Positions 5,809-50,700 of a stretch of DNA of 64,000 nt are shown here, in pieces (the first letter of the stretch is position 1; each line of letters starts with the position of its first letter). Under the pieces are notes generated by a model. That model was not told the origin of the DNA and made no database searches. It saw only the letters and a program-made list of their open reading frames with translations. The translations under genes were made by a program, and so were the position numbers. Location: positions 1 to 64,000 of the forward strand of contig JBEWZL010000030.1 of assembly GCA_045837725.1 (NCBI GenBank). Reading direction: 5' to 3'. The DNA is from Vermamoeba vermiformis (taxonomy: Eukaryota).

Positions 5809-10664
<4,856 letters not shown>

Positions 10665-24486: not shown

Positions 24487-27198
24487 TTAGTTGTCGGAGC
24501 TAACTGAGTCCGAATCCTTCTTTGCAGGCGAGCGAGATCGTGATCGGGAACGAGACACTGATCTAGAGGCCGATCTGGAGCGGGGTGAGGGAGATCTAGA
24601 GCGGGATTTGGAAGAAGGGGAGCGCGATCTGGAGCGAGATTTAGAACGGGACTTAGGTGAGGGAGAGCGAGAGCGAGATCTAGAGCGAGATCGGGACTTG
24701 GGGGAAGGGGATCTTGAACGAGAACGAGAACGGGACTTGGGTGAAGGTGATCGTGAACGGCGCTTCTCGTCGCTGGAGACAGACTTGTTGTCCTCTTGGT
24801 GAGCCTCTTCTTCGTGCTTGGGCTCCTCGTGGTGCTCTTCGTGGTGAGCTTCTTCGTGTTTGTGCTCTTCATGGTGCTCGTGATGCTCCTCATGGTGCTC
24901 GTGGTGCTCCTCGTGCTTGGGTTCTTCGTGGTGTTCATGGTGCTCCTCGTGGTGCTCGTGGTGTTCCTCGTGCTTGGGCTCTTCGTGATGCTCCTCATGA
25001 TGGTGGTCCTCATGGTGCTCGTGGTGCTCCTCATGCTTGTGGTCTTCATGGTGCTCGTGATGTTCCTCGTGCTTGTGTTCCTCGTGGTGAGTCTCGTGGT
25101 GTTCATCATGCTTGGGGGCTTCATGATGTTCCTCGTGCTTGTGAACCTCAGCTTGCTTCTCCTCGCGCAACTTCTTGGCCAATTGTTCACGCTCGGCTTT
25201 AGCTTTCTCTTCGCGCTCTTGAGCCTCCTGTTCGGCCTTTTGACGCTCTTCTCTCAACTGCTTCTCGCGCTTTTCAGCTTCGAGTCTCTCTTGCTCGCGC
25301 TTCTCGGCAAATTGTTCAGCCAACGACTTCTTGTTGCCACTGTCTGAAGACTTTTGCGAAGTGTGAGTGGAGGTGGTAGTGCTGGTGCTGGTTTGTTGCT
25401 TGGCAGCCTTGGCCTTGGCTTCACGTTCAGCGCGTTCACGCTCCTCGCGTTCCTTAAGTTCCTAATAGAAGAGTTTATTAATATCGACTACGGCCATACC
25501 TTATCGCGTATGATCATACCTGTTCGCGCTTCTCGCGTTCTTCACGGATTTGCTTTTCCTTGCGCTCTTGTTCCAACTTCTCTTCGCGTTGCTTCTCGGC
25601 AAATCGCTCAGCCAATGACTTGTTGGCACCAGCTAAATAAAAACATTGTCAGAAATTTCCAGATCGAGATCTGATCGAGAAACAACTTACATTCACCGCG
25701 GGGAGTGGTGCTAGTAACGACCTTGTTGGCCTCAGCAACCTTGTTTTCAAAGGCCTTCAATCTATCAGCTAACTTGCCGCCAGACTTAACCTCAGCTTCA
25801 GCTACAAAAATGAATTTTTGAGTGGATTTGCCTTACGCACGCGTTCGATCTGCAATGTTTACTCACCAGTGCGGGGGCTAACAACAGTATTGCTGCTAGA
25901 AGCACCTGATTCGAACTTCTTCTTGGCATCGGCAAAGCCAGCAAGACGAGGCTTTTCGGTGGTAGTAGATGAGCTCGAAACAGCTATTAAAATAAATCAG
26001 CAAATAGCTCAATAATATTCTCATTGATGTCATATACTTACTGGTAGTAGTAGTATTATCGCGAGGAGAAGTAGTAGGCTTGTGAGCGACATGACCGTCA
26101 GTGGCATGAGATGCAGAAGGGCCACCCTTTTGATGAGTAAATTGTTGTTGTTGCTTCTCACGACCGAAACCTAATAACGTATTATTATCATTAAATTATT
26201 ATTTCGTTTGGAGAGAGTGAGATTCGGATTCGCGAGCGAGAAATTTCGATTGACTGCCGTTGATGTCAAATTGATCTACCTGGTTTACCTAGCATATATA
26301 TGTTTATTTGTGTGCTTACCTTCGTCGTAGTTGCCCTTCAATCTGAATAATTGAGTAAAATGAGGCTTGCAATAAACTTGGCCTTGAAGAGAGGCGAAGT
26401 TGCCTAACTTAAGCATTGCATTGCAGTGAGCGCATCTGAAGCAGGTCTATATAGTATACAATTAATATTATGAGTAAACTAGCCAACCAAAATCGAACAC
26501 AAATATCTTTTTTCAATTTGAATCTGCTCGCGATGGCGATTATTTTTGTCATTAAAATGTATATTATACTCTTGTTATGTATATTAACATTCGACTATTA
26601 ATTTTATGCCTTGTATTCAAGATCCAACAAAATCGCAACGGTCAAATTCGTATCTTTTTAACTTTTAAAAAATCCTACACGTAATAAACTATGATTTTAC
26701 CGAAATTAGCTTGTATATAATCAATTAAATGTGTCTTAAATTAAAATCACGCGATTTCTATTTAAATTTACAAAAATAACGAAGATTATTAAATTGTTCA
26801 GATCTGCCACAATAACAAGTAAGTTTGCCGTTATTTTTTACCTTGTGCATCAATGACTTATCATCAACAGAGATCTTTTCTGTAGGATAGACAGTTTTGC
26901 CGCACTTAGCGCACTTGTCTGAGGGACGGGCGATATTCATCTAGACAACAAAACTCTTATTAGACATTTCTCGCGAAAAAATTAACGAAATAATAGTGCA
27001 GTTGGTCAAAATAATTCATGGTATTGATAAAATACAGTTAGCAATTTCGTTTTCTCGGCCCGCAGTATTTTTTCAAACTCGGATGCGAATTTTAACGTTG
27101 GGACCAAAGCAATAGAAAATCGGGGCTAATAGCGCTCTTGTTTGTGTATCAAACGTTATATAACCTACCTTAATGGGTGTAGCTGCAACTTCCGACAT
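24487..27198 (-). CDS. LIM-domain protein (EPLIN/LIMD2-type) with coiled coil, His/Glu repeat and RS-rich tail
   Basis: [13 protein letters not shown]...[11 protein letters not shown]...[24 protein letters not shown] coiled coil; HEEHHE repeats; (RS)nPSPK repeats. Confidence 0.88.
24520..25145 (-). repeat. Coding tandem repeats: [10 protein letters not shown](PK) units and [11 protein letters not shown] units
   Basis: Directly visible in ORF 24487..25323. Confidence 0.9.
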
Positions 27199-27450: not shown

Positions 27451-30271
27451 ATGAAGTCTATCATTCTCGGTGTTCTTTTTGTCGCAACCGTCGCCATTGC
27501 GTTTCCCTCACAATTGACTTACAACATCGGCGATGAGTTTGATTACACTTGCTCAGCCTTAGTTGATAGCAGAGGCCAAATGGCCGACGGATCTAGAACT
27601 AGTGGTTCATATTCCACTTTGAATGGTATTGTCGCTGTCCAAGTAAGTCGAAAACAAAAATATAGCGAAATCTAAAATTATTTTCGAATATTATTGCCGC
27701 TTGTCACCATTAATTTCGTTATATTTGTGATTATTCTAACCTATTTTTAATTTAGGTTCAAGATTTTCAGAACGGAGTTTATTTGTTTGTTATGAACATG
27801 TTTGATGTCACCGTTAATGTGGGTCAAGGTCCTGCTTCAGCTAAGCCTGGAACTCCTTTGACCTCAAGAGACGACGAACCATTGGGTTATGTAAGCTCAA
27901 TTACACTATGATTCAATATCAAACAATAGAGGACACGACGGATGTCACCGTTTTTGGATGTGGACTGTAATTTCAAGATGCTGATGTTCTGCTTGATATT
28001 TAGGACATGTACTTTGCTCAAAACGCTACTGGTGAAATCACTGAGATTTGGTACAACGTAAGTGTCGGAGCTCGCGGAATGAATTTTTCCGGATGGCAGC
28101 GTAATAACAATCGATGCTTTAATAGGAGGATGACTCGCCTTACTTCGTCAACGTTAAGATTAGCGCTATCAACGCTTTCCAAACTCGCGTTGTTGCTCCT
28201 GGTGCTAACCTTATGGCTGCTGAGTCCGATCCCGCTGGTTATCACTACTCCAGCTTCGTTGGTGGCAATCAAGTACGTGATTCGCATCTATATAATACAT
28301 GTCATTATACTAATGTATTTACACTAATAGCAAACTACTTTGTTGGTTTCCAAAACCTTCACCGAAAAGGATTTCACTTCCTTCGCTGACCCCAATGTCA
28401 AGCCTGCCAACTTGAAGCTCAACGCTTTGACTTCTACTTCCGTCCACAACGACGGCTACATCATTGGCGCTTCAGTCAACCAACAAGTTGTTATTACCAA
28501 CGCCAATCCTCAAGCCTCATCTGTTGCATCTCGCACTCGTCGCGCCGCTGCCCCCAACACTAACACCACTGGCTTCGACATGAACTTGTCCTCTGCCGGT
28601 CAATTGACTATTGCTTTGAGCCAAAGCGGTCAAAACTTGCGATTTGGCGGTGCTAAGAAGTTCAACATGGCCGCTCTCACCACATCCAACCTCAAGAAGA
28701 GCACTATGGTCGAGCTCGGTGCTAAGGGCGTTGAGTTCAAGAAGAACTTGGCTCCTGCCATCGAAGTTACTTCTTCCGTCTCCAAGCTCCTCGGCAGCCA
28801 ATTGACTCGCTCCAAGAGATACACCTTGGCCAACAAGTTGATCCGCTTCTTCAACGCCAACCCTGCTCAACTCACTCACTTGACTGCTAAGATCAGTGAC
28901 AAGCTTTCTGCCAAGCAAATCCAATCCATCTTCTACGTTCTTGCTGGTGTTTCCAACGTCAACGCTGTCGCTACCGCCCAAGACGCCTTGACTGTTGCTG
29001 GTCTCAACCACCGCTCTGTTGACCGTCAATTGACTGCTATCTTGGCTCTCGGCAGCAGCTTGCAAGACGTCACTCCCGCCGTCATGACTCGCTTGGCTGA
29101 ATTGGCCCGTGCCAACACCAACCGCAGAGTCTCCACTCACGCTTTGTTGGCTGCCAGCGCCATTCTCGGTCGCACCAAGAACGCTGACGTCATCAACATC
29201 GGCAAGGCCCTCTTGTCTGACAAGTTGAACGGTTTCTTGAACCGCGCTTCTGACGCTGCAGATTTGACTGTCATTTTGAACGCTGTTGGTAACGCTGGTC
29301 CCAACGGTATCTCCTTGGAAGCCAACATCCAAAGACTCGCTCCATACGCCAACGACGAGAAGTACAAGGCTTTGTGGATTAGCACTTTCAGAAAGTTCCC
29401 CGCCACTGAAGTTATGGCCAAGATGCCCGCTAACCTCCGTGCCATCATCGACTCCGCTGCTGCTCCTCGTGATGACTTGTACCCCTTCAACAAGAACTTC
29501 AGCCGTGACTACAAGCTCGGTGGTGAGTCCGTCAACGCCGACTTCAGCTTCGACTTGTTCTTGGGTACCAACTTTGACTGCAACCAACAATACTTCAACT
29601 ACTTGGCCTACGCTGACGTTGAAGCTGTTGTCGATGTCTACGACTACTCCAAGTCTGCTTTTGTCGCCAAGGCCACCTACGGCAAGGCCAACGGTGTTCT
29701 CCAAGGCAACGAGATCTACGTTCGCTTCTGGGACGACGTTTTGTATGATCAACAATTGCCCACCGTTGACTGCAACGAGCACACTTACCCTCTCGGCCAC
29801 ACTGCCCCTGGTTTCTCTGTCTCTTACACCGTCTGGGTTTCCATCATCCCCGTCACCTTCACTGCCTCCGCTGCTCTCGAATTGAACTTGTCTTGGGGCT
29901 GGCAGATCTGCGACTCTCAATTGAGCGCTGAAGTTGAACTCATCCCTGATGCCGCTTTGGTCATCTCCGGTGATGCTGACATTGACTTGTTGATCATCAA
30001 GGCTGGTCTTGAATTGGACGTCGATTTGGACCTCGAAGTTAGACCTCAAGGTTACATCCACGGTTCTGAATGCACTATTGGTGTCGATGTCGAATTGACC
30101 TACGAGCCCTCTAGCGCTCAATTTGACGGCTACTACGCTTGGGATCACTGCAAGTACTGGATCTTCGACTGCTCTTGGGGCAAGCACAACCAACAAACCT
30201 TCTGGTCTTGGAACACCCCTGCTTCCAACGAGATTGTCTACAACCAACAATGGAAGATTGCCAAGAACTAA
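27451..30271 (+). CDS. Secreted, strongly codon-biased protein with a large-lipid-transfer-protein (vitellogenin/MTP)-like N-terminal module
   Basis: Signal MKSIILGVLFVATVAIA. Spliced YFAQNATGEITEIWYN|EDDSPYFVNVKISAINAFQ and ESDPAG; helical region with AILALGS and ILNAVGNAG; beta-rich, Cys-containing C-terminus. Confidence 0.65.
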
Positions 30272-30465
30272 GAAGCCTTGTAATTTTGATGTAGAGTTTA
30301 TATCCTTATGAATAAAGCAAAATTTTCGCAAACGTTGTTTCCCGCGCTTAAGTTACCGTTGGCAATTTAAATTTTCCTCCCGCGAAAAAGAAGTTCATTG
30401 CATTCAATTTTTAATAGTTGAACAATCATTTGTGTATATTATGTGTAAGTAAGGCAAGCCACAAC

Positions 30466-33400
30466 ATGAGCAAGGTTGCATCCGATACTAATCCCGTTTC
30501 ATCTCAAGGTAATTCACTTTTCGCTTCCTAATACGCGAAAAAAAGCATTAAATAATTAATTTAATATGATATTAGTTGTCTCAATGACTTGATTTGTACT
30601 TTCATCTCTAACCAATTATTTATTGCAATAAACAGGATCGAAGCAATTGTCAAACGCAGACAAGCTTGCTTTTAATAAGGCATTGCGCGAGGCGAAGGCA
30701 AAAGAGCATGAGAATTCATTCGCAGAGGCTTTGAAGTTTTACCAACAAGCAGATGCGATCTTTTCTGGTCATGACAAATTAAAAAAGAAGATAAAGCATT
30801 TATTGCAAAAAGTATTGACAGAGGTACGTATGAATAATATTTAATAAGTATATAATGTCATTTTCTAATTGTTTAAAAGAAGGAAGAAGATAAAGAAAAT
30901 ACCAGTGTCAATCAAGCCAGCTCGATAAAGACTCCTGCTAAGGTTAAGGAGGAGGTTAAAAAGGAGGTGAAGAAGCCTTCAAAGAGAGTAATCGAAGAAA
31001 GTGACGAAGAAGAGGACGAAAGCGAAGAAGAGTCTCGATCAGTCGATCCTGCAAAAGACACCTACGAGAAGCTTGACGAAGACTACTTCATTAACACCCG
31101 CACTCGAGAATGCGTCATTGATTATCAGCAATCTAAGCGATTCGTCTTACCCGAAAAGGTCTACAAAGAATTGTTACCCCACCAGAAAGAAGGAATTGCC
31201 TGGCTTTGGAAGCTATTCAAAAACCGTAAAGGTACCGGAATAATTCTTCTACTTGCGACCTAAATTAAATAACTAACGACAATTATATTAGGTGGCATTT
31301 TGGGAGACGATATGGGTCTCGGCAAGAGCGTCCAGATCTCGACTTTTCTTGGTGCCTTGTTCAAGCAAAAACAAATCGAGCGATGCCTCGTTATCGCTCC
31401 TACCAGCTTGATCGAAGAGCCCTGGGAGAAAGAACTTAACAAATGGACCTCTGGCGTCAACATCAAGAAGTTCCATGGCACTTCAGTCGTGCAACGCGAG
31501 AAGGCTCTTGATTCTGTCATTAACCGCGGTGGTATTGCTTTAACAACCTACGGTAAGAATATACGACATATTAAATGCCTAAGTAGACATTATTAACTCG
31601 TGCGATCAGGTATGGTTCGAGAGAATGTGGATCAAGTCAATCAAACCACGTGGGATTTGATCGTGCTCGACGAAGCACACGTGATCAAGAAGCACACCAA
31701 CAAGATCTATCAGACCATGCTGCAAGTCAAAGCAACACGCAGAATCTTGTTGACGGCCACTCCCATTATGAACAATTTGACTGTAAGTAGTATTGCTGGA
31801 GGAATTTTTCGTTCGCAAAGTAACAAATTGGTGCAGGAATTGTGGGCTTTGATCAACTTTATTTCTGACGGTCAATTGTTGGGTCACATTACTACGTTCC
31901 ACACAGAGTTTGAACGTCCTATTCTAGCCGTAAGTCACAGTCTTCTTAACGACGCTTAATTTCTAATGACAATATCGCTATAGGGCAACAGTCGTAATGC
32001 CAATGCTACTCAAAAGCAGTTGAGCTCAGCATTGACTCAAAAGTTGCGAAACATTATTCATCCCTATTTCTTGCGTCGTGAGAAGAAGGACGTATTCAAG
32101 ACATCAGATAATCCCGAGCCTGCTCCAGTCGCAGCACCTGTTGCCGAAGAGAACAAAGAATTGGCTCAATCCAGCGAATCCGTCGAGGCTCTAGTGGATC
32201 CGCTCGAAAAATTGACTATTAAGGTCAAGAAGAACGATTACGTCGTATGGGTGAAGTTGAAGCCCGTTCAAGTCAAGCTATATGCAGACTTCTTGGCTGT
32301 ACCTGAGATTCAAGAGGTGAGTAGAAGCGCAGATCAGATCTAACTCAGCGGCTAACTTTCTTTGGTAGATTTTGAACAAGACTCGCAGTCCCTTGGCTGC
32401 GCTTAGCGTATTGAGAAAGATTTGCGATCATCCTCAATTGTTGAGCACGATGGTTGAATACAGCAATGTCTTCAACTTGAAGGACTCGTAAGTTCTTTCG
32501 GATCGATCATATTTTATTTGGTACTAACTGGCTCTTACAGACTCCAAAAAACTACGCTGGTTCAACAATCTGCTAAGCTGGAGTTCGTTGTTTCTTTGAT
32601 GCAGGATCTGAAGAAGAACAACCACCGAGTGTTGATCTTCAGTCAATCGACCAAGATGCTCGACATTATTTCTCAAGTATTCAAACAAGAGGGCCACAAG
32701 TTCATTCGAATTGACGGAGAAATTCCTCTAAAAGAGCGACAACAGCGCATCAATGCTTTCAACACTGATCGCAGCTATTTCTGCTTCCTGTTGTCCACTA
32801 AAGTCGGTGGATTCGGCTTGAACTTGACTTCAGCTGATCGAGTCATCATTTGTAAGTAGAGTTTAATGCCGGTACGCGCAGATCTGACAAGAATTTAAAC
32901 AGTTGATCCTTCTTGGAACACTACCGACAATCAAGCAGTCGATAGAGCCTACAGAATTGGTCAACAAAAGAACGTTGTAGTCTATCGTCTCATCACTTGT
33001 TCCACCATTGAAGAGAAGATCTACCGCAAGCAGATCTTCAAGGATGATTTGATGCGAATGATGACTCAAAAGAAACAGGTACGTAGTATTATATTACTGT
33101 CATTGCCAAGCTTTATTAATGCCGCTATGCACCAGGCTCAACCTCGTCGTTTGTTTAGCGATGAAGAATTGAAGATTGAGCTCAAACAAATGTTCCAATT
33201 TGAAAATCCTGACGCCAGTTTGACGCAACAGATTCTCGAAGAGTATTTGAACAAGTTCAAGAGGTACTCTAATTACTATCCTTGTTTGTGCTGACTTCAA
33301 ATTCTAACCTAATTCACAGACAAAACGAGACTCGTCGTCAATCTCTTGAGACCCACGTAGCTTATCTTCGTTCAAATCCACTCGTTTTCGGTCTCAGTCC

Positions 33401-36400
33401 GCACGATCTGGTTTTGGATGGCGATAAGTTGCGCAACATTTGGGCTCGTCGTGCTTCTCAATTTGGTGCTCAATCGAATATGAGTCCTAGCAACACCAAT
33501 GTTAATGCTCAAAATATGCTTGCTAATCGATCTCGTTCGAACGCGCCTCACAGCCCTTCGGATCCAGACCTCGCTCAAGCATCCGCTCTTGTTATCGAGG
33601 CAGTAAGTCTAATTAATATTCAAAGTGCTTTTAATTCACGGCTAACGCTCTAACAGGCGGACAAGTCGCTGCAAAAGCTTCAAAAGACCATCTTGCCGCT
33701 ACACGTGGTCGAACATCAACGTCTAGAACAACTAGAGATGTCAGCGCAGAAATCAGAAGTCAAGCGCAAGAGATTGCAAAAGATGGAAGAGGACGAAGAT
33801 AGTATGCAACGCTCTCCTACTCGTGTTAAAGGCAAGAACTCGCCTTACATGTCGTATGCATTAATAACATTTTCATCCAATAGCCGTCCCTGCCGTTGTT
33901 CTCAACCGCAAGAGAATTATTGGCGACGAGTCTGACGAAGAAGACCATTACTCTCGCAATCCGTTTATCGCTGACGAGGCCTCAGAGGCCGAAGAAGTGC
34001 CTGACCAAGAGTGCGAGCGAAGCTTCGAGCAGTACTTGAGCGATGGTGAAGCTGAACAAGAGCGCACAGCGATTGATTTGCACTCTGAAGAGGCGAGTGA
34101 AGACAACGAGCCGAATCAGTATGAAAAGGACAGCTTTGTTGCCTCGGAAGATGAAGACGAGTACGATGAGGACGAAGAAGATGCGTATGCTACTGCTCAC
34201 GATGCGGATGAAGATGATTATGATGAAGAAGATGAGGAGATCAATCGTCAGATCCGCAACTCAGTGCCGCTCATGATGGCTCAGGTCGAAGAGGAAGAAG
34301 TTGTTGATTTGACTGGCCCTATTGACGTCAATGATGTCGCTCAAGCCCTTCGTACCATGCGCATTGAAGATGCACCCGAGCATGAAGAAGACGAAGAGGA
34401 TTACGAAGAGTGTGAGGACTACGATCAACAGTACAGCGACGAAGAGTCTGAGCACGAGGACGATGTCATCGTTGATGTAGACTCACCCGTACTCGCTCCA
34501 CGTAATGTAGCTCGTGTCAATGACGAGCAACGTGATGTAGCTACGAATGAAGTGCACGAGACCGTTGAACAAGACGAAGAAGGGGATGAGGCGGCTTACA
34601 ACCAAGAGGATGAAGCTTGTGTGGATCTCAATGCAGAAGACGTCAAAGAGGTCGTTGACATGAATGAAGCGTTTATGGAAAGTGACCATGAAGACCACGA
34701 CAACGATTTTGCTAATGAAGAAGATCAGCAAGAAGATGAGGCTCGCGAATCTGACGAGGAGAGCGAGGACCATCACGATCATGACGCAAAGAGTGTTAGT
34801 GAGAAGGTCGTAGAAGAAGTAGCAGAACAAGTGGCTGAAAAGAAGCCTGTGCCCATTAAAACTGTCGAAGAGCCAGCTGATGACGACTTTGGCATTGATG
34901 ACTTCTCACTCGTTGATGATCTTCATTTGACTGAAGCCGCTCGCAAGTCCTTGCCTCAATCTGCGGAACGTGTTGCTACTGCTGCTGTTGTTGCTGCTGA
35001 AGTCGAGCAGGAAAAGCCCAAGACTCGCGAGGTTGATTTGCCAATCGAAGATGCTGTTGCCGAGACCGAGGAAACTGAAGCTGAGAACGTCGTCGAAGAG
35101 CACAGCGAAGAACAATCGCCAGTTGAAGAGGTGACTAAAGAGGCCCAAGCACCCGAAGAAGAGGACTCTGAAGTGGATTCTGAACAGGATTCCGAGAAGT
35201 CTCCAGAGCGCAGCTTTGCTCCTCGCAAGTCTGTGTTTGGTGACGCTGATCTTGGCAACTTCTTGTTGAGTCAAGTGATCTCCGCACCACGCGACGATGT
35301 CAACGAAGACAGCGAGAGTGAAGAAGAGGACGAGGCTAGTGTCGATGAGACGTTTGAAGACGTGCCTGTCTACGACTATCGCCGTAATGTATTGAGCGGT
35401 GATGAGGACGCTGATGTAGTGAGCGATGAAGAAGTTGAAGAAGACGAAGCTGAACTGGAAGATGAGAACCAATCAGATGATGACGAAGACATGAAACGTG
35501 AAGAGGAGATTAAGGCTCTGTTAGAGCGCATCGATATCAACGCTGCTGCAGTGCAAATAGACGAAGAGAAAGTTGACAATAGCCGAACCGATCGATGACG
35601 AAGACAACGGCAGCGAGGGAGAACAGATCCACGATGACGAACAAGGTCACGAAGAGGAGCACGTCAGCAACGAGCACGAAGATGTTGTTGAAGAAGAACA
35701 AGACGCTGACCTCGACAACACCGTTCAAGATGAACATCACACTGAAGATGAGTGCGATGATGCATGCGATGGTCACGAGGATGAAATTGCTCGTGAGGCT
35801 GAGGCAGACGTTGAGAGTGAGGATGAAGTTGCGCCGAAGAAGGCAACCAACAAGCGACGAGTCATTGATGATTCTGAAAGCGACGCTGGTAACTTCAGTT
35901 TTGAAGGGTACATCACCGGCGAAGAGGAAGATCCGGAGTTGTCCGAAGAATCTCCAGTCAAGCCTGTTGTAAAGAAGAACAAAGACAAGGTCAAGACCTA
36001 CAAAAAAGAAAAGAAGGAGAAGAAGGTTGCTGCAATTGAGATTTCCGACGACGAAGAAGAGCAGATCTGGGATCAGACCCCGAAAATTAAGAAATTAGTG
36101 CGAAAGACCTCTGTCGAAGACTGTAAGCATTCAAAACAATATTATAAACGTTTATATTAACATTGGCTTGTATAGTAAAGGAACCCAAGTCCGCCCAAAA
36201 AGTCGTCCCAAAGAGTTCAACTAAACTTTGGGAGACTAACCGCCGCGAGTTCTTAATGAACAAGGAGGTCATTGCCAAACAATTGTTCGATGAGTTTAAT
36301 ACTCGAATCTTTGGTGGCAAGATGGACAAGCTGGATCTTGTTTGGAGCAAGGCTTTGACTAACTGCGCCGGCAAATACTGCGTGACTATCGAGGTACAAA

Positions 36401-36920
36401 TGTCGTTAATACTTTACAATTTATTCTAACTTTATAATAGAACAAACAAAAGTACTGCTGTATCAAGTTGTCCGGCAAGTTTTTGACCACAGCGGATCGT
36501 TTGAAGTCAACTTTGATTCACGAGATGTGCCACGCTGCTACCCATCTTATTGATGATGAAATCGATGAGGCTCATGGCCCTGTTTGGTTCAAGTGGACTA
36601 AGATCGCAGGTACGTTGAAAAAAATTGGATGTGTTGAACAGATCCGGATCTGACCAACCTTTAATTCATAGAAGCCACATATCCTGGTATTAAGATTACT
36701 CGTTGCCATTCATATGACATCGAGCCAGAGTTCCAACAAAAGAACCAATACGTTTGCACGAACGGCAGCTGCGACAAAGTGTAAGGAACAACCATTCTGA
36801 TTTCTTGCGATTACTTTTACTAATTGCATCGTCATTAGTTTCGGATCAATGTACAAGTTGAAGAAAGCTGAAAAAGTTTGTTCGAAGTGCCGCAGAGGCG
36901 CTTTAGAGCTCTTGCCTTAA
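30466..36920 (+). CDS. ERCC6L: PICH/ERCC6L-like SNF2 translocase fused via a long acidic IDR to a GCNA-type SprT metalloprotease and C4 zinc ribbon (one +1 frameshift near 35570)
   Basis: N-terminal TPR-like helices; [59 protein letters not shown]-terminal [39 protein letters not shown]...CSKC. Confidence 0.85.
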
Positions 36921-37143
36921 GTTGGGATGCGTTTTTGCTTTGCGTGTATTTGTAATATTACTTGTAAATAAATTTAGTTACAGAACTCATGATGGTCTAG
37001 ATACCTCGCCTTCCAAACGACCTCCTTTCTGGGCCTTTTTAGCTCAGCAATATCCGGTGTGGTGTAGAAGATGGAGATTTTTTTTTGCCTGGGGCCCAAT
37101 GGTGAAAAAAAATTTGGGGGGGTTTTTTTGACACAGTCGATTT

Positions 37144-38067
37144 TTATTTCGTTTGTTTTTCTTTTTCTTTTTCTTCTTGCTGTTTCTTCATAATCAGTTC
37201 AGCTGTCTTGCCGATTGGAGTGTTATTATACAACGATTTCCACGCTTCTTCTAAGTCTTTAATTTCTTTTTCTGTTACGACCAGATCTTTCGTCGCTTTT
37301 TGTTGTTCTGGTTCTGGTTGCTTGGGAAGCTTGCCTTTCATCCAATCGCCAAATTCTCTTAACTACATACAATAGTATTATTAGTACCTGACTAAATAAC
37401 ACGATAGATCGATTCGTCGTGCGTAGCGAGAGATCTGGATCCTTACATTCTTGACGCCAAGAGCTTTCGAAGTTCCATAGGCAGTTACAGCCGCTACACT
37501 CGTGCATAATACACTGCCGTAGAATAATGCTTTGATTGCGTATTTGGCGGCGCTGCCAGGGATCGGCGTTCGTTTTTCCGGATCTGGATGCATGTTTTTG
37601 ATCATACCAAAAGCTACGCCAATTATAAATGATACTCCCATGCCTCCTGCAAACCACCATCCAAATTCTATGTGAAAGATGTCAGAATTATACGGAGAAT
37701 ACTTCCACCAAAGAATCCACGAATTTTGTTGACGCTTTGCCGGCTAAAATTATAAAATAATCTGTAAAATACACGAAAATATGTTTTGATCGCCTCGACT
37801 CATTTGTAATTAATTTTAAAAATTATTCGGAGGAAGATCTTGTCGTCAACAAGCAATGAACTTACTGTCGGTTACGCTATTAACAATATCATCGCTCATT
37901 TTTTTGCCATGAACCACGACTCCATGTAATTCATCTCTGTCTAGATGCTTTTGTTCGAGTAATGATTTGAAGTCGACTTTTGGTGCATCCGATTCCGTTT
38001 TGGGCTTATTTGCTTGTGTGTTCGGTGATGGTGCAGTTAAGTACGCATATTTATAAATATTATACAT
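37144..38067 (-). CDS. TMEM242/DUF1358-like membrane protein (start uncertain)
   Basis: AAKYAIKALFYGSVLCTSVAAVTAYGTSKALGVKN|LREFGDWMK matches the family pattern; two TM segments. Confidence 0.6.
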
Positions 38068-41788: not shown

Positions 41789-44700
41789 TTACATATCAAG
41801 AGCAAATTCAATCTTTTTGACCAATGACGTGATTTCTGAACTGTGAGCCCATCGTTCATGAACGCGCAATACAAGTTCTCGTTGAATGTCAGTCACGTGC
41901 TTGTCTTTGCGCGCATCTAAAAGCTCGATCTCCTTCAATAACTTCTCCAACATTTTTCCGACGAGTTGGATCGGGGCTTCGGGGTGCATTTCATCGACAA
42001 ATTTGTACACGTAGATGCTCGATACGGTAAGTGTCACATCGCCGGACTCCAAAGTGACATCTGTCAAGAACTCTCGGTCCTCAGATTCGATCGATTTGAT
42101 CACGCCGTAATAAAATTTGTCGTCGGCTTTGTTCTTCCATGCAACGGTCTCATCAACTGTCAGCGGCAATAACGGACTGAATGTCAATAACTGCTTTTGT
42201 TCGTTCGTCAATGGCGTGCCGTAGGACTTGTTTAACATGCCATTGGTGAAATTTCCATCGCCCTTTTGATCGATCTTGTAATGATTCAGCACGCTCAAGA
42301 TGTCACTAAGAACATGTTTTAGTAAAATATTTTCAAGCTACCAGAAAATTTTTGATCGCGTACCTTGGATCGCAGGTGAGGATGGACTGCAACGGCAACA
42401 AGTTCCTTAAGAAGTGACCCAAGTAACGGTTGATTTCAATGACTAACAGCTCTTCGTATTTGACGGCTTTGGGAAGCTTTTCAATCAAATAGATTGTCTT
42501 GGTGTGTTCATCCAACAAACAATTCGTGCCTAAAAAGCAATGGTTAGCCTGGGTATTGACATTTTGAGATAAAAAATCATACCTTTAGCGTCTTTAGTGA
42601 CATTGCGCTTGTTTCTCGTGTCAATGAACTGCGAGTGAATGGTCGGAACAATGACCACTTTGAACTCTTGTAATTGCATCACTTTTTTCTCCAATTTCTT
42701 GACTTCACGAGCCACGTCAAGCTTCTCGCTCTTTCTGCGCGTCAATTCGTGCATTGATATGCGCAACAGTCCTTCGCAGAATTGCGTGGCTGAAATTGTA
42801 GCGGTGAATTTTGCGGCCTCTGTCAAATTGACAGGCTGGATCTTGACATCTGGATGGAAAATCTCTTCGACAATCTCGCTCAGCGCTAACAAACGAAAGG
42901 TTTAGAATGACACGTGCATTAATGTCAAAAAGTGACACTTACGTTGAATGTGCATTTGTGACGCGATGAATTGAGAGACGTGTTTGTGGGCCAATGAGAA
43001 CTCTTCCATATTAATACGGTGATGCAACCAAGAGCTGTCATCGTAAATCAGTTCCGAGCACGGTTTCAACTTGTTGTGCGTGTCTGGTGCGAGAATGACG
43101 GGCACTGAAGCAGCGAAATATCGATCGTGATTTTCAGGCTGGAGAATTCTCAACTGACTGCAGTAGCGCAATATTCTAATTGTCAAGTCTAACTGATTAG
43201 GATTCAACGCGCTATGCTTCTTCTTGTCAGCCAGTTGCGTCAAGACATCGAGAAGGTGGTCAATGTCCGGCACAACTTTCGCGCCAGCGACTTTGAGGAG
43301 TTCTTCAAACTTGCTAAGTTTGCGTGGCACTCGGTAGAAGAACGGTCTGAAATCAGTCGCAGCGTTAGATGAGCTGTCGTTGTCTTGAGCATTGTTCTTG
43401 TGGAGCTTGAAGAACAATTGGCGTGGCAAGACGGCGAGACCCGACTCGTCAACCACGACACAAGCGATGTTGCCCAGTTGATCGCGAATAATCGAGACTA
43501 GGTCTTGATATTCTTTGCTCTTAGGGTCCTTCTTGGCTTCTTCTAGACGTTCAGCGATGTACTTGAACGCGGCCTTGAGATCTTTTTGCAACAGTTTGAC
43601 CGACTTGTATTTGAATCGATCACCTTGCACCATCAAATTGCTGATGTGTTGAATGACTTTTGTGACACTAGGAGGCTCTAAGGACCACACTGCACGAACA
43701 GCTTCGTTGGGCACAATCTCCGGATGGAATATTGGCGAGACCGTCCAAATAATGCTGCGGTACTCGGGCAAGGCAATATCGTCAATGCGCTGAAGAATGA
43801 CGTTGGTAGGGTCCATTGGATCATTGTCAGTCACGTTAGTCATGCGCGGGTCCCACTGACACGGCACGAATTGAATGTTCTTGGCCTTGTTGATGAACGA
43901 GTGAATGAATGATCTGAACGCAGCTTCAGCATCGCGCTGTGTCTTGCGATTGATCTCTTTGTTGCGCTGCTTCTTTCTATTGCTGGCCACAACATCGTCC
44001 GTCAAGCTCTCGTAGACTTTCAAGCCGTCCTCGGTGCCAAGGTCCTTCAGCATCTTCAAGTCATTGAAGCCCTTTGAGACGTGAGTCTGATAGAACAGTT
44101 GAATCAGTTCGAGCAAACGACGCAGCTGCACGACTGAGAGTGACGGCAGAGCGGAGTATTTGAGCGCTGCGGACAAAAGGTGCTCTTCGGCCAAAGTCGT
44201 GTTGAGACCGAAATTGTCGCGCAAGAAACTGATCCATTCTTTCGACGAGATTCTGACGTCCGGGAAGTTCTCGGGGGTGTCGGAGTACAAGAACGCAAAG
44301 ACTGCATTCGTTGGATCGTGCAAAAATATGCCTCGTCGTGCAATACCAGCTGTATATAAAACGATTATTAGTTAACTTTTAAAGGTCAAAAATGGATCCG
44401 TACCTCTGGTCGGGATGAATTCGAACACAGACATCAGGTCATCAAAGTGCTTGATCTCGTTCTTCAAAATAACCATGTTGTTCTTGATGAACTCGAGCAT
44501 CTTAATCTGGTTCTGCGGTGATAGAGCTTTGATAGTTGGGCAAAACATATTTCTTCAAGAAGTGACCTCTATTAGCCGCTGAAATTCCGAGGCACGCGTA
44601 GAGCTGTTGCAGCTTTGGTTTGTACTTCAAGAACTTGGAGTTCAAGCTCGTTGAAGGCACGTCAGGTGGCATCATGAAGTACTCATCTTGAGGGGCCACG

Positions 44701-47700
44701 AAGCGGGTTTTGCCTAGTCGAACATTAGTATATTTCATTTATATAGATGTTAAGGGACATACCGTATTCTTCGAGTTGTTCACGGAGCTCAGGCGGAATG
44801 TTTCGGAACAATTTGGGATGGTCACAAATAACGTCCGCGCACAAGTTGACCAAGTAGTCAGGATTGGTCTCGGACTCTGTCTCGAACAACGGCAATCTCT
44901 TGAGGATCTTGGCCTCCATGGCAATGCGTCTGTCGATGAGTTAGCGTTATTTACTTTTTTGGAAATGACTACGTACTCAATCGAGACGGAGGTGTTGAGA
45001 GTCTCCAGCAAGAAACTTCTATCTTGACTCGTCAAATTATCACAGTTCTCTGGCTTGACGCGTCTCAGGGCCAACAAAATGTCCTCTGGCTTGATGTTCA
45101 AACACATCTTTCTAGTCTCGTTTGTCGGAGGACAGATGTCAGTGTTCAAGAACAACGCTTGCAGCTTGGTCATAATGTCAAAGAGACGTGCTTTCGGGCC
45201 CTTGAATAACTCCATCTCTGAAGGCGGAATGAAGATGTACTCGGCTCTACCACGACTCACGAGCTTGTAGTCTTCAGTGGGGATAATTGGCCAGTCGACG
45301 GGCAATGACGACCATTTGCCCTTTGCAACACTCCAGAACTTGCGCAGCCAAGCCTCGGAGATATCTATCACACGTTAGTCATCGAAAATATCTTCGTCAT
45401 TAGTTTCGAACTTACCGTTGAAATCCCAATTAATTTCTTCTCGTCCGCGCCACTCTTTGGGAAGTATCAAATGGAAGTTCTCCATGAACTCGGTGACACC
45501 AAAGTTCACTACAGAAGCTGGCGACAGATCTGCTTTTCGTGAGAGCTTGAAGTCTCGCAGAACCTTGCTGACATCAATGTTGATCAACGTGCGCTTGAAC
45601 GCCGGCAAGTTTTCAATGAGCTCGATGATGGTGTTGATGTCAGTGTCAATCATATACTTCAATTGACCACCGAAAATAGTGATGGCGTTGTTGTGCAAGC
45701 AACACAAAGGCAGACCAACGAGACCTTGAATGATCGCGTGAGTCTCTTCTTCGTCCAATTGACTCGTGTCCCAGTTCTGTCTCTTTTTCGCCTTCTGCAG
45801 CTTGAGCTTTTGATTCTTGCTCGTCTGTCTCTTGAAATCCGTTTCGTCCTTGACAGCAGGCAGAACAGTTTCAGTCTTGGATGACTCGAGACAATAGTTC
45901 AATAGGACCAGCGCGCTGTCCTTAGAGTTGATGACAAACTCGTCGTAGGTCCAGTAAGTCTTTCCTGATTCAGCTGCCATCTTTTTCAAGAAGTTTCGAA
46001 GTTTCAACGGTGAGAGCTGTTGAATTTCATTCACCGAGTGGTACTTGAACTGTTGATAAATGACCTCGGGAGCATCAGCCAAGGGGAACTTGATTTGCTT
46101 GAGAATATCCACGAGCTTAGCTGTGTTCTTATGCAAGATCAATTCGTTCGGGAAGACCGACTCGAACGGAGCAATGAGCGTGTTGGCATCCATGAACGAG
46201 AACAAGCAGGCTTGTTTTGCGAGTATTTGGTAGAAGGATTGGATCATCGGGTGCCAGAACTGATCGATCGGAGTCGCTGTGGTGGACGGCCAGAAGTCAT
46301 AGTACTGATTCTTTTTCACTTCACCGCGAGCGATGCAGCCTTGCAGACCCTTGATAAAGTGGACGTAGGCACCGAGTACAGAGGTATCACGCAGCACCCG
46401 GTTCCATTCGGCCTCTTCTGTGGTGATAAGACCGTTCTTCTCCGGCGTCAAGTCAAAGTTGGAATGGATTTGGACGGGCAAGCCAGTAGCTATGTCCAAG
46501 GGCACATAGTAGAACAACTTGCCGTTAGACGTTTCCTTTTCCTCCTTTTCTTCCTTCTCTTGAGCTTTCTTCTTGTTACTGTACTCGCGCTGATCAAGCT
46601 CTTTGGTGTCTGAGGGTAACTTCGCTGCAACGATCGAGTAAGGCAAACGCAAGCCACTGATCTTGGTCTTGGATGTCAATATCTTGTTGACGTAGCTGAC
46701 GTCAAAGTACTGTGACATCAACCACCTTTCGTTGACTGATTCGCCTTCAGCTCTCTTAGTGACCTTCATGTTCACGATCTGAGTTTCTTTTTGCAATTCA
46801 AGCGGCACGTCGAGCTTTCGCTTGATGGGATTGACAGCAACGATCTTTTTGACAGCGCGCTTCTTTTTCTTAGGCCTCTTTTGCTTATCGCCAGGCTCGG
46901 GTTCGTTAGTGTTATTATTGTTGTTATTGGGATCTTCAACGGTGATCTCCTCTTCGTCGTTATCATCCAACGTGGTCAGCTGCGTGTCAATGTACGACGC
47001 GATGTCTTTTGGTTTGCCACGGAACTTCTCAAGTTCAGGAGTGAAATCTGCACGAGTGAATTAGTTTAGTTTTTAATTAGTTTAGGACTTACTCTCAATT
47101 TCAGCGATAAACCAAGGCTTTAGATTGTTCTCTTCGTTTTGGTAGGTCTCAATTTTCTTGACACGGTTTAAGAATGCCAAATGCGAGGTCGCTTGACCCA
47201 TAAAACGGCCAATCAACTTGCGCACCTTGTCTACTGAAACAATCGTGCCAGGAAGACGGGAGTCTTTGCCCTTCAAAACTTGCCGAAGAGGTACTCTGAA
47301 GAGCGTGCCAGGGAAGTATCCCTTTGACACATCGCAGCCCAAGAAGTTGAACGTTGCAAATTGGTCGGGGAAGAGTGACACAATGTTGGAGTTCAAGTTG
47401 AAGCGGACATACGGGTGATGGGCGTTTGATCCAGGAACGTGCGATGTGTAAGCATCACAGAAGACGGCGTCTAAAAGTCCGTTAGCATTATAAAAATTTA
47501 GATTGAAAAACTGCTTACAGTTGCCGCTGACGAAGCTGGGAAGGTCGGACAAATGGAACAAGGTGCTGAAACCAATGCCAAGTTTTCCAATTTTGGTAAT
47601 GTCTCCACGCTTGGCACTTCTGCCAGGAGTACAAATGTTTTCAAAGTCCTCGGGTCTGAATGTGGCGTTGTTGTAAATGTACAACGCAGGTCCCTGGTGC

Positions 47701-50700
47701 TCCTTCATCTTGGGACCGAACAACGAGTTGTCATTGTGCTGCGTGTCGTCGAGAATAACAACGAATTCACTGGCACCAGCATCGTCGGCATTTTGAATCA
47801 TCTCCGTCAATATTCTGGATTGAGAACGAGTGTGAAGGGCCTCAGAGATCTTGCCGAGTTTTTTGCTCACACTTGCATCGCCATCCTGGTCCTTGATTGG
47901 GTCAATCGCATTCGTGATTACCACATGACTGCAAGGTCTGATGCCGAGAGCCTTTGCAATTTGATTCGGAATGGACGGATGAATGATTTGGTGATTCTCG
48001 GGTGTCTTGGCTTCGAGTGACTTAACCCACGGCATGTCGTCGTAAACGAGCTTTGTAGGTGACACAAGATGTCCACTTTGACTGGGCAAGACCAAACCAT
48101 TCGGAATATCTTTGGCTGACTCGATACTTTCAGATAACAAGGTCACAACTGAAAGGCTGAGTTTGAGTTCGCGCTCGTTAAGTGGCGTCCTGTTGTTCGC
48201 TCTGGTGGCCAATAAGTCTTTCAAAATGCCAACCAAGTCTTCAGGTTCGACGTAATTCTTGAAGTCGAGAGTGCTGAATAGGTTGGGATATTTCTTCAAG
48301 TCTCTTGGGCACGAGAATATGAACGGAGACAAGTCGATGGACAATTCTCGAACAATTTGAGTCTTCTTCGCAAAATAAGGAGCGACCCAAATCCACTTGC
48401 AATCTTCATCAAGGAGCTCATCGAAGGCGTTCTTTGTGATCTGCCCAGTGCTGAGTGCGTTGTTCAAAAACTCGTTGACACGGTCGCTAATCGTTGAAAT
48501 GAACGATGAAAGTTTCGAACCACTCTCGCCTTCAATGTTGAAAGCAACAGCTGTGCTCGCTAATTTCTTGGTGTGACTCACAACGACTTCAACGTTCGGA
48601 GGGTTGACCCAGTCAAATGTCTTGATGAAGTAGGGGTTCTTCGGGTGATAGTCGAGGATGGCACGACTGCCGCAGCTGAGCAGGGCATCACGTTGCAAAC
48701 AAGTCACGTTCGGGGCAACAAGCTGAGGCTCTCCAACAAACCAGAAGGCTTGATTGAACGCAGAGAGCACGTCATTTGCTACCACATTGAGTGAGTTGGC
48801 CAGGTAGTGTGTTGGTGAAATGCTTGGCAACCATTCCGTCGCTGACAACTCCTTGGTGAACACATCAAAGTCCTCCGCTGATAATTCAGTTTCCAGCATG
48901 CTGAAGTTACGATCCAAGTAAGCGCACAAGCTCTTCGCTCGCAACAGTGCTGCTTGCTTGTCTTGTTTGTAGTATGAAGGCACTGACTTGATTCTGTCGA
49001 TGAAATCTTTCACGCCAAGCTGCTTCTTCAGGCCAAGCTTTCTTAAGCTCGCAAGCATGGCAGGATCTTTGTACGGTCCAGTAGGGAACACAGGTTCGAA
49101 CGTGAACATGTGATTCATGTCTGTTTCTTCGGGGTCAAACAAATAACGAGGCGGACAAAGTCTTCCGTTGCTGTCTGGAATAAATTCCAAGTTGCTGAAG
49201 AAATCCACAATGTCACCAGCAGTGTCTTCCTTGATAATGGCATTCAAGTCTTCGAGCACATAAATCATCACTTGGTCTCGGTGTTCTTGAGTAAATGTGC
49301 TCAGTTTCTCGGTCAAATAAGACTTGTAGAACTCTGGGCGCTTCAGCACTGATATTTCCAAGAACTCCAACAGGTATTTGTCGTGTGGCGAGTCACGCTT
49401 GAGCAAGTACTCCGAAGTGATGTCGTGCGGAATGTTTTCGGGTGGGCACGCGTACTGAGTCTTGTCAATAGCTGCAAATCGATGTTCTTTCGAGAAGGTC
49501 TCGAAGATTGGAAGTTGCTTGATGTTGTCTCGTTGAGCTGCAGAGTTGAGCACCTTGTTTTCAAACCACTCATACTTGGAGAAGAATCGCCTGAGATTGT
49601 GAAATGTTAATGTCAACTAGCGCAAAGGTTTAATGGACTTACTTGAGAGCAATCTTTTCATCGGCAGACAAGACCGCAAATAGCTCCGTAGGTGATTTGT
49701 TCGCGTTCTTGATGCACTGAGTCAACGCGTTCAAAACACCAGCTGCGTCACCAGCAGGGAAGATGTTGCTCAAGATTTTGTTATTGAGTGTGATTTCCGA
49801 TTCATCGACGACATAACAGTGAAGCTTGGCCAAGGCGGTGATGACGTCATTGGACAAACTTGAGTGCGATAGCAAGCACGGCGTGTTAGGGTGTAGCGAG
49901 CACAAGCGTTGACCCATGCACGGTACTAGAGGCCATTGTTCGAAATCAGTCTCGGGCTTGTCGTTGCCGTTCATCGTAAGGAATGTCAAGTACTGCCAGA
50001 AACGCTCGAGCCAATCTTTTGACACGACATTCTGATTCCACTCAACGAGATACGAGTTCTTCCACTCTTTTGGAAGCACGTGCTCGAACAATTGGCTGAC
50101 AGTCTTGGGATCCACAATAGTCACATTGACCACTTCTCGCAGCTCACTTGACTTGAGCTCGGCGTTGATAGTTGGCGACACGATGTTACTGTCAACGAAC
50201 ATTGACAAGTGATTCGGAAACAACGACATTTCTAAATCAGTTGCGAGGTAAATATGAGCCTTGTTCCTGCTCTCAAACTTCGAGAAACTTTTGTCTGCCA
50301 TTGGCACCAGGTTGATTCCCTACTTTTGTGTCAGCTTCAAACCAAATTAGTTAACTTTAAACTAACGTACCTGAAGGTCTTCGAAGTTTCTATCGGCCAA
50401 GCAGTATTCGAGAAGATGCACAACTAAACTTCGATTCTTTTGATACATGGCGGGCACGGTGGTCCAATTAGTCTTCAAGATTTTTCGAACCAATGAAGGA
50501 CTAACAAATTTCACGGTGTTGCCGAGAGCGTGACTGAATGCTTCGAACAAACCAGGAGTGACTTCTACTACGGGAATGTTCTCGTCAATCAGTGCTTGAA
50601 AGACGGTCTTGAATACTGCAGGCGGGACAGCAGTGCTATGCACATCTTCATTTCTATATACAAATACGGCCTCTGAAGCGGAAACCCATTGTCCGCCGTT

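Follow-up and report, generated by a model that had tools for sequence, protein, structure and literature searches.

A predicted union of an ERCC6L/PICH-type SNF2 translocase and a GCNA-type SprT protease in a single gene of Vermamoeba vermiformis

Among the questions raised by the genome of Vermamoeba vermiformis is whether a DNA motor and a protease that are read in succession from one locus are made as one protein. The locus lies on the forward strand at positions 30466 to 36920 of a stretch of 64,000 nucleotides (nt; contig JBEWZL010000030.1, positions 1 to 64,000, of assembly GCA_045837725.1), referred to here as the window; all coordinates are those of the window, and all features of the gene lie on its forward strand. 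The original prediction for this locus was a single gene in which an ERCC6L/PICH-type SNF2 translocase continues through an acidic intrinsically disordered region (IDR) into a GCNA-type SprT protease. The gene model, built from sequence, has 18 exons and runs from an ATG at 30466 to a TAA at 36918-36920, with 17 introns of 47-127 nt (16 with GT-AG and one with GC-AG ends), in a window that is eukaryotic DNA with short introns. With one base (35580) omitted, the conceptual product has 1816 amino acids (aa) and aligns end to end with P0001, a protein of 1782 aa from a relative; read as assembled, the product has 1449 aa and ends at a TGA at 35596-35598. In order along the chain are an N-terminal TPR-like helix pair, an SNF2 ATPase, a post-helicase block, an acidic IDR, an SprT metalloprotease and a C2C2 zinc ribbon. 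Both enzymes, ATPase and protease, have all their catalytic motifs intact. We hold with good confidence that this is a single protein-coding gene for an ERCC6L/PICH-type SNF2 translocase joined, by way of a GCNA-style acidic IDR with sequences resembling SUMO-interacting motifs (SIMs), to a GCNA-type SprT protease and C2C2 zinc finger, the mechanism proposed below being included in that judgement.

Part of the evidence for this reading comes from relatives of the window organism. A search among longer proteins with the 56-aa translation of an SprT exon gave one match from 16 candidates, and this was P0001, identical over the exon (100%) and present in public collections under the machine-given name ‘SNF2 family DNA or RNA helicase’ with the families PF00176, PF00271 and PF10263; Pfam finds in it SNF2-rel_dom (2.9e-59), Helicase_C (1.2e-25) and SprT-like (1.7e-21). 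The 90%-identity cluster of P0001 has 14 members, seven of which are intronless open reading frames (ORFs) of 1782 aa on contigs of 5420-8817 nt, the others being three of 781-783 aa (two on contigs of 13 and 130 kb), three of 73 aa and one fragment of 578 aa. The members of 781-783 aa represent exon 14 of this relative read from genomic DNA; they are free of stops from the PICH-type C-terminus through the acidic region to the exon end, and they carry 19-20 residues (RKNNLNCFPLITFETDEFI...) that are absent from P0001 and correspond to the spliced-out equivalent of the GC-AG intron. Since these genomic exon ORFs are open and differ from P0001 by a spliced intron, the genomic and spliced forms of one species agree on a single continuous frame. 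Over the full length, the window model (without 35580) and P0001 are 94.3% identical in the SNF2 core, with no gap columns, 69.3% identical in the IDR, with 71 gap columns, and 94.6% identical in the SprT part and ribbon. The seven intronless contigs each hold such an ORF of 1782 aa, which matches the window model over its whole length; the fusion is therefore real in the clade of the window, and the claim of a single gene is borne out by a relative with single ORFs that hold SNF2, Helicase_C and SprT-like domains together. In the window itself, single-exon translations match SNF2-rel_dom in exons 4, 5 and 7 (3e-16, 2.9e-14 and 0.0034), Helicase_C in exon 9 (2.9e-19) and SprT-like in exons 15 and 16 (8e-4 and 2e-13).

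A closer relative is represented by run X1, a set of assembled contigs that are 93-99% alike to the window and whose RNA origin is presumed from their label. These contigs skip nine of the 17 modelled introns exactly, at GT..AG or GC..AG ends, so X1 holds spliced sequence of this relative. Its record 3 (725 nt) covers 33326-33602, 33657-33829 and 33882-34156, and thus links the PICH-type exons 12 and 13 to the acidic exon 14. The skipped stretch is 52 nt long, with two letters that fit on either side, which places an intron with GC..AG ends at 33832-33883, where it joins the PICH-type part in frame to the acidic region. The GC-AG intron on which the predicted continuity depended is confirmed by this spliced contig. 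A GT-AG intron at 33823-33883 (61 nt) would also keep the frame and is ruled out by the skip of 52 nt. In the second relative, to which P0001 belongs, the corresponding stretch is open in the genomic ORF P0003 and missing from the transcript ORF P0001. Were the GC-AG intron retained in the window, the frame would run into a stop at 33933-33935 and yield the PICH part alone. This is not a conserved feature, since retention of the intron in the second relative leaves the frame open (P0003).

Could the locus nevertheless consist of two neighbouring genes, one for a PICH-like helicase and one for a GCNA-like protease, that seem to be joined through read-through or through mis-assembly of transcripts? 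A contig that spans two genes does not by itself show a single transcript, and the depth of X1 is uneven, at 2-10 over the SNF2 part and 11-17 over the SprT part, a pattern to which an extra shorter transcript could also give rise. Against this stand the relatives, in which no stop separates the two parts, neither in the transcript ORFs (P0001 and six others) nor in the genomic exon ORFs (P0003, P0005 and P0011), and the in-frame splice from exon 13 to exon 14. Moreover, the frame at 35561-36122 contains no methionine and the first methionine of the acidic frame comes about 130 codons in, so that conserved coding sequence would be left without a start codon if GCNA were a gene of its own; and a second, divergent fused form (P0145, discussed below) is again a single ORF. 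Two adjacent genes are thus very improbable, and the single fused gene is the reading followed here.

A more pressing matter is the break in the frame within exon 14. As assembled, frame 1 stops at the TGA at 35596-35598, and frame 2, which is open at 35561-36122, is joined by a canonical intron to the SprT exons. The X1 contig that covers 35358-35856 omits exactly one base, the T at 35580, which in the window shifts the frame and brings the TGA into it. The other three X1 indels in exon 14 are each 3 nt long, which leaves 35580 as the sole X1 indel there that is not a multiple of three, and the genomic exon ORFs of the second relative (P0003, P0005 and P0011) are continuous across the equivalent site. 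A correction of one base had been foreseen at about 35570; the single-base break in the assembly is real, and its position is 35580. A tiny intron or programmed frameshifting at this place was considered and rejected, as the relatives are simply without that base. A metagenome scan with the SprT exon gave two loci from 509 pattern matches, one of which (L002) is a chance match in a bacterial-looking contig; the other (L001, 2194 nt, from a third, more distant relative) covers only the last part of exon 14, the exons for SprT and the gene that lies downstream. Between the window and L001, the ratio of nonsynonymous to synonymous differences per site (pN/pS) in the SprT exons is 0.08 over 185 codons, with pS at 0.66 and hence near saturation. 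The protease is under strong constraint, purifying selection having acted upon it, and there is no decay downstream of 35580 in the window.

If the T at 35580 were genuine, the product would be a PICH-type translocase of 1449 aa with an acidic tail and no protease, and the gene would be either an allele that has recently lost function or a pseudogene at an early stage, in an ancestrally fused clade. The assembly itself reads with the frame break, and 35580 lies outside a homopolymer run (GACAATAGCC). Indel errors in assemblies are less common outside homopolymer runs, and the context of this base is accordingly one in which fewer of them would be expected. Everything downstream is intact, however, including the open frame, four canonical introns and the close identity to P0001, and together with the low pN/pS against L001 and the absence of the base from X1, the closest relative, this means that any real break would be very recent. 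A genuine break that has removed the protease is therefore a possibility to which we give some weight and which we think unlikely. With nothing damaged downstream and no such base in the nearest relative, we favour the view, as reasonably likely, that the extra T is an assembly error or a non-representative allele; an old lesion is less likely than either an error of assembly or an allele of very recent origin. Just past the 3' end of the gene, at 37080-37140, lies an odd homopolymer-rich stretch, with reads that seem to be cut at 37145-37188; it may bear on local assembly quality.

To which families do the two parts belong? The SNF2 N-lobe (31171-32487; Pfam SNF2-rel_dom) contains a motif at 31303-31329, motif II DEAH at 31669-31680 and motif III LLTATP at 31747-31764, and the Helicase_C lobe (32541-33078) has a further motif at 32932-32964; motifs I, II, III and VI are intact. 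The PICH-type motifs named in the original prediction, KND.VVW.KL (32227-32259) and RSPLA.L.VL.K.CDHP (32381-32434), are present, as are HEMCH, HG..W and ITRCHSY in the protease. When residues 150-800 of P0001 were searched against proteins of 980-3119 aa, 4595 matches at E<=1e-10 were obtained among 8000 scored candidates. The best 120 of these were used, and apart from P0001 itself they have scores of 482-907 bits and identities of 38-48%; the named proteins among them are animal ERCC6L, plant CHR24, and proteins of Arcella and of dictyostelids. ERCC6L and CHR24 make up the homolog group with the highest scores, at 40-48% identity across about 91% of the 651 aa. The best solved structures are human CSB/ERCC6 (310 bits), Rad26 (261) and DDM1 (237). 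These bit scores support assignment of the SNF2 part to the ERCC6L/PICH type, closer to ERCC6L orthologs than to ERCC6/CSB or other SNF2 groups, which agrees with what had been proposed from its motifs. In a FastTree analysis of 29 SNF2 cores the protein of the window clade groups with Amoebozoa, at a weak support of 85, and outside the animal clade (99).

The flanks of the motor point the same way. An N-terminal TPR-like helix pair (residues 22-75, at 30656-30817; pattern ...FNKAL..AK......F.EAL.LY..A..I....DKLKKKI..L) aligns with animal ERCC6L N-termini in an alignment of 11 sequences, and it is on this alignment that the putative TPR is based; in two animal orthologs Pfam TPR matches are weak and sub-threshold (P0057, residues 43-72, E 8e-4; P0024, residues 34-64, E 0.017). 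The block after Helicase_C (33220-33416; TQ..L...H......L..H.A(F/Y)L.S..(I/V)FG(I/L/V)S.HDL) is conserved in 11/11 aligned ERCC6L-type proteins, and we take it to be the published PICH family domain (PFD). PICH is described as having an N-terminal TPR, a C-terminal TPR, the ortholog-specific PFD and three SIMs at its C-terminus (PMC8565832). The fused protein is thus like PICH/ERCC6L and CHR24, SNF2 translocases of the ERCC6 group, in the intact motifs of the N-lobe and Helicase_C, in an N-terminal segment that can be aligned and in the post-helicase block, and it carries its SIM-like motifs C-terminal of the motor. It differs from PICH in carrying, where PICH has its C-terminal half, an IDR in the style of GCNA and a protease, and in the absence of a C-terminal TPR; no TPR family is found in P0001 by Pfam at E<=1, whereas vertebrate ERCC6L orthologs have TPR_2 at residues 1175-1204 and 1265-1292. 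Two further ERCC6L-like proteins, P0065 and P0098 (1103 and 1192 aa), have a RING finger (PF13920) between their SNF2 and Helicase_C entries and form a clade of their own (support 100), another unusual PICH-type fusion. In P0018-P0020, CHR24 models of rice and Leersia with 1731-1790 aa, the SNF2 core is present in two copies, probably through merging of tandem genes, and the doubled core inflates their scores in the SNF2 comparisons reported here.

Between motor and protease lies the acidic IDR, encoded by exon 14 (33884-36122) together with the end of exon 13 and comprising residues 871-1625. It had been estimated at about 700 aa and measures 755 aa, with a D+E fraction of 0.363 (36%) as against 0.108 in the SNF2 core. 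Its identity to P0001 (69.3%, as against about 94% in the folded parts) marks it as fast-evolving. In the AlphaFold model of P0007 the confidence measure (predicted local distance difference test, pLDDT) is below 50 nearly throughout residues 2-398, save for a conserved helix at 188-203. Two SIM-like motifs, at 34288-34317 and 34456-34488, were found by a pattern scan and are conserved in P0001.

The SprT-like metalloprotease is encoded by exons 15-17 (36176-36780; Pfam SprT-like), with HEMCH at 36519-36533, AHGPVW at 36570-36587 and ITRCHSY at 36695-36715, and is followed by a C2C2 zinc ribbon (36755-36899) with CTNGSC at 36755-36772 and CSKC at 36879-36890, the chain ending 10 residues past the last cysteine. 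Its fold and zinc ligands match those of human SPRTN, which is the best match among solved structures (6mdw, E 7.9e-12, with HExxH and HG aligned); in the model of P0007, in which most residues from about 405 onwards have pLDDT values above 90 and the ribbon has about 85-97 apart from one block at 67, SPRTN is again the first Foldseek match (E 2.2e-8, target TM 0.53), one of two at E<=0.001. The closer relatives by sequence are of another kind. A HMMER search with P0007 against 1.84 billion representatives gave 1828 matches at E<=1e-3, and the best 150, all of which match the SprT part, were used. Ten of the relatives were looked up by name. Those of Oscarella and Calliphora are called ‘germ cell nuclear acidic protein’, and there are SprT-like proteins from Tieghemiomyces, Gaertneriomyces and Chromosphaera among the ten, so that early-diverging fungi, a sponge and an ichthyosporean are among the nearest named relatives; the protein Atlas returned generic SprT clusters only. 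Pfam finds in the best 80 SprT relatives SprT-like (80), Zn_ribbon_SprT (PF17283; 53), HMG_box (19), WLM (1) and SNF2-rel_dom (1), and SPRTN_ZBD in none, and SPRTN scores 48 bits as against 88-111 for GCNA-like matches. In the rows of GCNA-type relatives the catalytic H, E, H and H and the G are invariant (83/83), and the four ribbon cysteines, which had been predicted as a C4 ribbon, align to cysteine in 81/83, 79/80, 74/74 and 72/73 rows.

Four parts define GCNA according to Carmell et al. 2016 (PMC5098910), namely a large IDR, a protease, a zinc finger of the C2C2 type and an HMG box of two helices. With GCNA the fused protein shares three of the four parts, acidic IDR, SprT and C2C2 zinc finger, and likewise a fast-evolving IDR beside conserved folded parts; it differs in having a PICH-type translocase of 870 aa in front and no HMG box, as P0001 shows no HMG or YABBY match in Pfam at E<=1, whereas the GCNAs of Spizellomyces (P0015 and P0016) do show the HMG box. 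In SPRTN the SprT domain is N-terminal and followed by a zinc-binding domain; here it is C-terminal, Pfam finds no SPRTN zinc-binding domain (PF22934) in P0001, and none of the 80 near relatives has one. Judged by these relatives, of which the nearest are GCNA and neither SPRTN nor Wss1, the SprT part is of the GCNA type, not the Spartan type, and is without an HMG box; the GCNA-type assignment first made from motifs is upheld by the GCNA names among relatives, the absence of SPRTN_ZBD from the best 80 and the conserved ribbon.

How widespread is this union? Among the best 120 of the 4595 ERCC6L-like matches SprT (PF10263) occurs in one, which is P0001 itself, and the other 119 gave no match to the SprT part in a local phmmer comparison. 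When long proteins that share words with the SprT part were screened, three of 366 candidates passed, P0001 and the two canonical GCNAs of Spizellomyces. From the other side, a local phmmer search with the SNF2 part on the best 150 of the 1828 SprT relatives gave one match, P0145 (E 1.2e-30). The search of the 1.84-billion-protein library with P0007 gave no match at E<=1e-30, which indicates that the library evidently holds no representative of this SprT part, and its silence on further fused forms is accordingly weak evidence. Among the papers listed in the literature searches no description of a PICH-GCNA or SNF2-SprT fusion was found, supplementary ortholog tables lying outside that scope, and none of those listed has ‘SprT’ and ‘SNF2’ jointly in title or abstract. 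Neither ‘helicase’ nor ‘SNF2’ occurs in the main text of Carmell et al. (PMC5098910), whose Figure 4-source data 1 ortholog list, outside that text, might hold a fused entry, and neither ‘SNF2’ nor ‘PICH’ occurs in the main text of the preprint by Bhargava et al. The architecture is thus rare (1/120 ERCC6L-like proteins and 1/150 SprT relatives among the best listed). The protein itself is already public under its machine-given helicase name. This is a new domain architecture from two known families, present but unremarked in public protein collections.

The divergent form P0145 is the only other protein found with both SNF2 and SprT parts. It is an ORF of 640 aa on a public contig of 3432 nt, with SNF2-rel_dom at residues 5-210 (2.2e-22) and SprT-like at 527-612 (4.2e-21), and may be incomplete. 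Against ERCC6L-type proteins the N-lobe reaches about 100-128 bits, and no solved SNF2 structure gives it more than 59 bits. Walker A reads ADSVANN and the DEAH box reads DGAE, so that the Walker A lysine and the DEAH glutamate are lost; Helicase_C is absent and the linker is shorter and not acidic, whereas the window clade keeps intact ATPase motifs, Helicase_C and a long acidic linker. In the linker, at residues ~304-345, EVVDL followed by acidic residues resembles the window motif at 34288-34317, in an alignment that is not significant (E 42). In a quick, unrooted maximum-likelihood tree, for which 151 of 152 SprT rows were used and one was dropped for incomplete coverage, P0001 and P0145 share a clade (SH-aLRT 95) with P0141, a fragment 72% identical to P0145, and with the stand-alone P0238, which has a long branch. 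As a lead, this would fit a single, older fusion whose product degenerated afterwards in the lineage of P0145.

What might such a protein do? The motor would load on duplex DNA and move along it, SUMO-marked proteins that are stuck on the DNA would be selected by the acidic region and the SIM-like motifs within it, and the tethered protease would cut these when the motor runs into them. The SNF2 part would then provide the DNA contact that the HMG box provides in an ordinary GCNA. Trapped or SUMOylated topoisomerase II (TOP2) would be the most likely client, since PICH and GCNA are both linked to TOP2 in animals. PICH binds SUMOylated chromosomal proteins through its SIMs, and its translocase activity is held responsible for removal of SUMOylated TOP2A (PMC8565832); ACRC/GCNA is reported to be recruited to DNA-protein crosslinks (DPCs) by SUMO polymers through SIMs, to co-localise with TOP2 on mitotic chromosomes and to remove TOP2-DPCs in germ-cell tumours (PMC9019546). 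A role for the fused protein on SUMOylated or trapped TOP2 is by this analogy plausible. The nearest known arrangement is that of SPRTN and FANCJ, in which FANCJ unfolds the crosslinked protein, a step that likely precedes cleavage by SPRTN (PMC10175854). The two cases are alike in principle, a DNA motor acting on a DPC that an SprT protease cuts; in that of SPRTN and FANCJ the two activities reside in separate proteins, with FANCJ a single-strand 5'-3' helicase and not an SNF2 duplex translocase.

An alternative accepts the fusion and doubts the motor: the SNF2 part could be a DNA- or chromatin-targeting module or a regulator, and not a motor that drives substrates, with SUMO-marked DPCs in general or tightly bound chromatin proteins, and not specifically TOP2, as clients. 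Several DPC species, histone H2B, MCM3 and Top2, are reported in GCNA mutants (bioRxiv 10.1101/570804), and P0145 has kept a PICH-type N-lobe beside the sister SprT domain in spite of degenerate ATPase motifs and an absent C-lobe. Since it lacks the Walker A lysine, the DEAH glutamate and Helicase_C, coupling of motor and protease is not required for the two parts to be kept together, and with its ATPase dead it cautions that selection may be maintaining no more than the tether. In the window clade, on the other hand, the ATPase motifs are all intact, and the 94.3% identity of the SNF2 core beside 69.3% in the IDR, between two species, argues that the motor is under constraint. A targeting module with broader clients is accordingly a serious contender, though we lean towards a working translocase that brings the protease to its substrates.

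Several observations weigh against this reading of a fused, DNA-tracking protease. The transcript evidence for the gene comes from relatives, and no transcript from the window organism itself covers it from end to end; X7-X9, which are raw RNA runs 90-95% alike to the window, reach depths of 0 to about 1 read over the gene, with three reads that agree with two introns, too few to settle the gene model. As assembled, the window frame stops 367 residues before the end and ahead of the protease, so the product may lack it. At the domain level, Pfam finds no TPR match in window exon 2 at E<=0.1; the Pfam model of the zinc ribbon (PF17283) is not reached on P0001 at E<=1; and the two SIM-like motifs are pattern matches only. 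The degenerate ATPase of P0145 counts on the same side. Finally, the putative link to TOP2 derives only from published work on PICH and GCNA separately.

The surroundings of the gene are varied. Directly upstream, at 28331-30271 on the forward strand, is an ORF of 646 aa with no Pfam family, which is heavily covered (depth 743 in X1 and about 35-68 per strand in X7-X9) and thus represents an abundant transcript; reads over it end at ~30302-30309 with loose, A-rich tails. On the reverse strand are a giant sacsin-like gene at 42902-51693 (PF25794 SACS, 1.3e-52, on the ORF 47085-49616), an ORF of 324 aa at 24487-25461 with long His/Glu repeats (HEEHHE...), an Arg/Ser-rich tail and no Pfam family, and two ordinary-looking genes, for an ABC transporter at 6075-10132 (ABC_tran, 6e-30) and an AlkB-like 2OG-Fe(II) oxygenase at 61159-61659 (1.5e-19). 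The start of the window, at 1-2200, is a GC-rich block (0.57) with similar ORFs on both strands.

This returns us to what the union of the two families may mean. Reviews treat PICH and GCNA in separate contexts, though each is tied to SUMO and to TOP2 on mitotic chromosomes in animals (PMC9019546, PMC8565832). The fusion might be read as a Rosetta stone, such that PICH and GCNA act in one pathway in eukaryotes generally, in which an SprT protease guided by SUMO is carried or driven by a duplex translocase onto proteins, TOP2 foremost among them, that are trapped where DNA is condensed or forms bridges, and such that this lineage joined both and dropped the redundant HMG box of GCNA and the C-terminal TPR of PICH. 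We put this forward tentatively, as a generalisation that we think doubtful; if it were true, the unexplained access of GCNA to animal mitotic chromosomes would run through PICH. The natural single-chain version in any case yields a testable prediction, that PICH and GCNA cooperate, and the fused protein is a compact case in which to ask whether a duplex translocase feeds or positions a DPC protease, as is reported for FANCJ in helping SPRTN. Loss of domains from GCNA has been described in some species (Carmell et al., PMC5098910), and the fusion shows that the modular evolution of GCNA extends beyond such losses.

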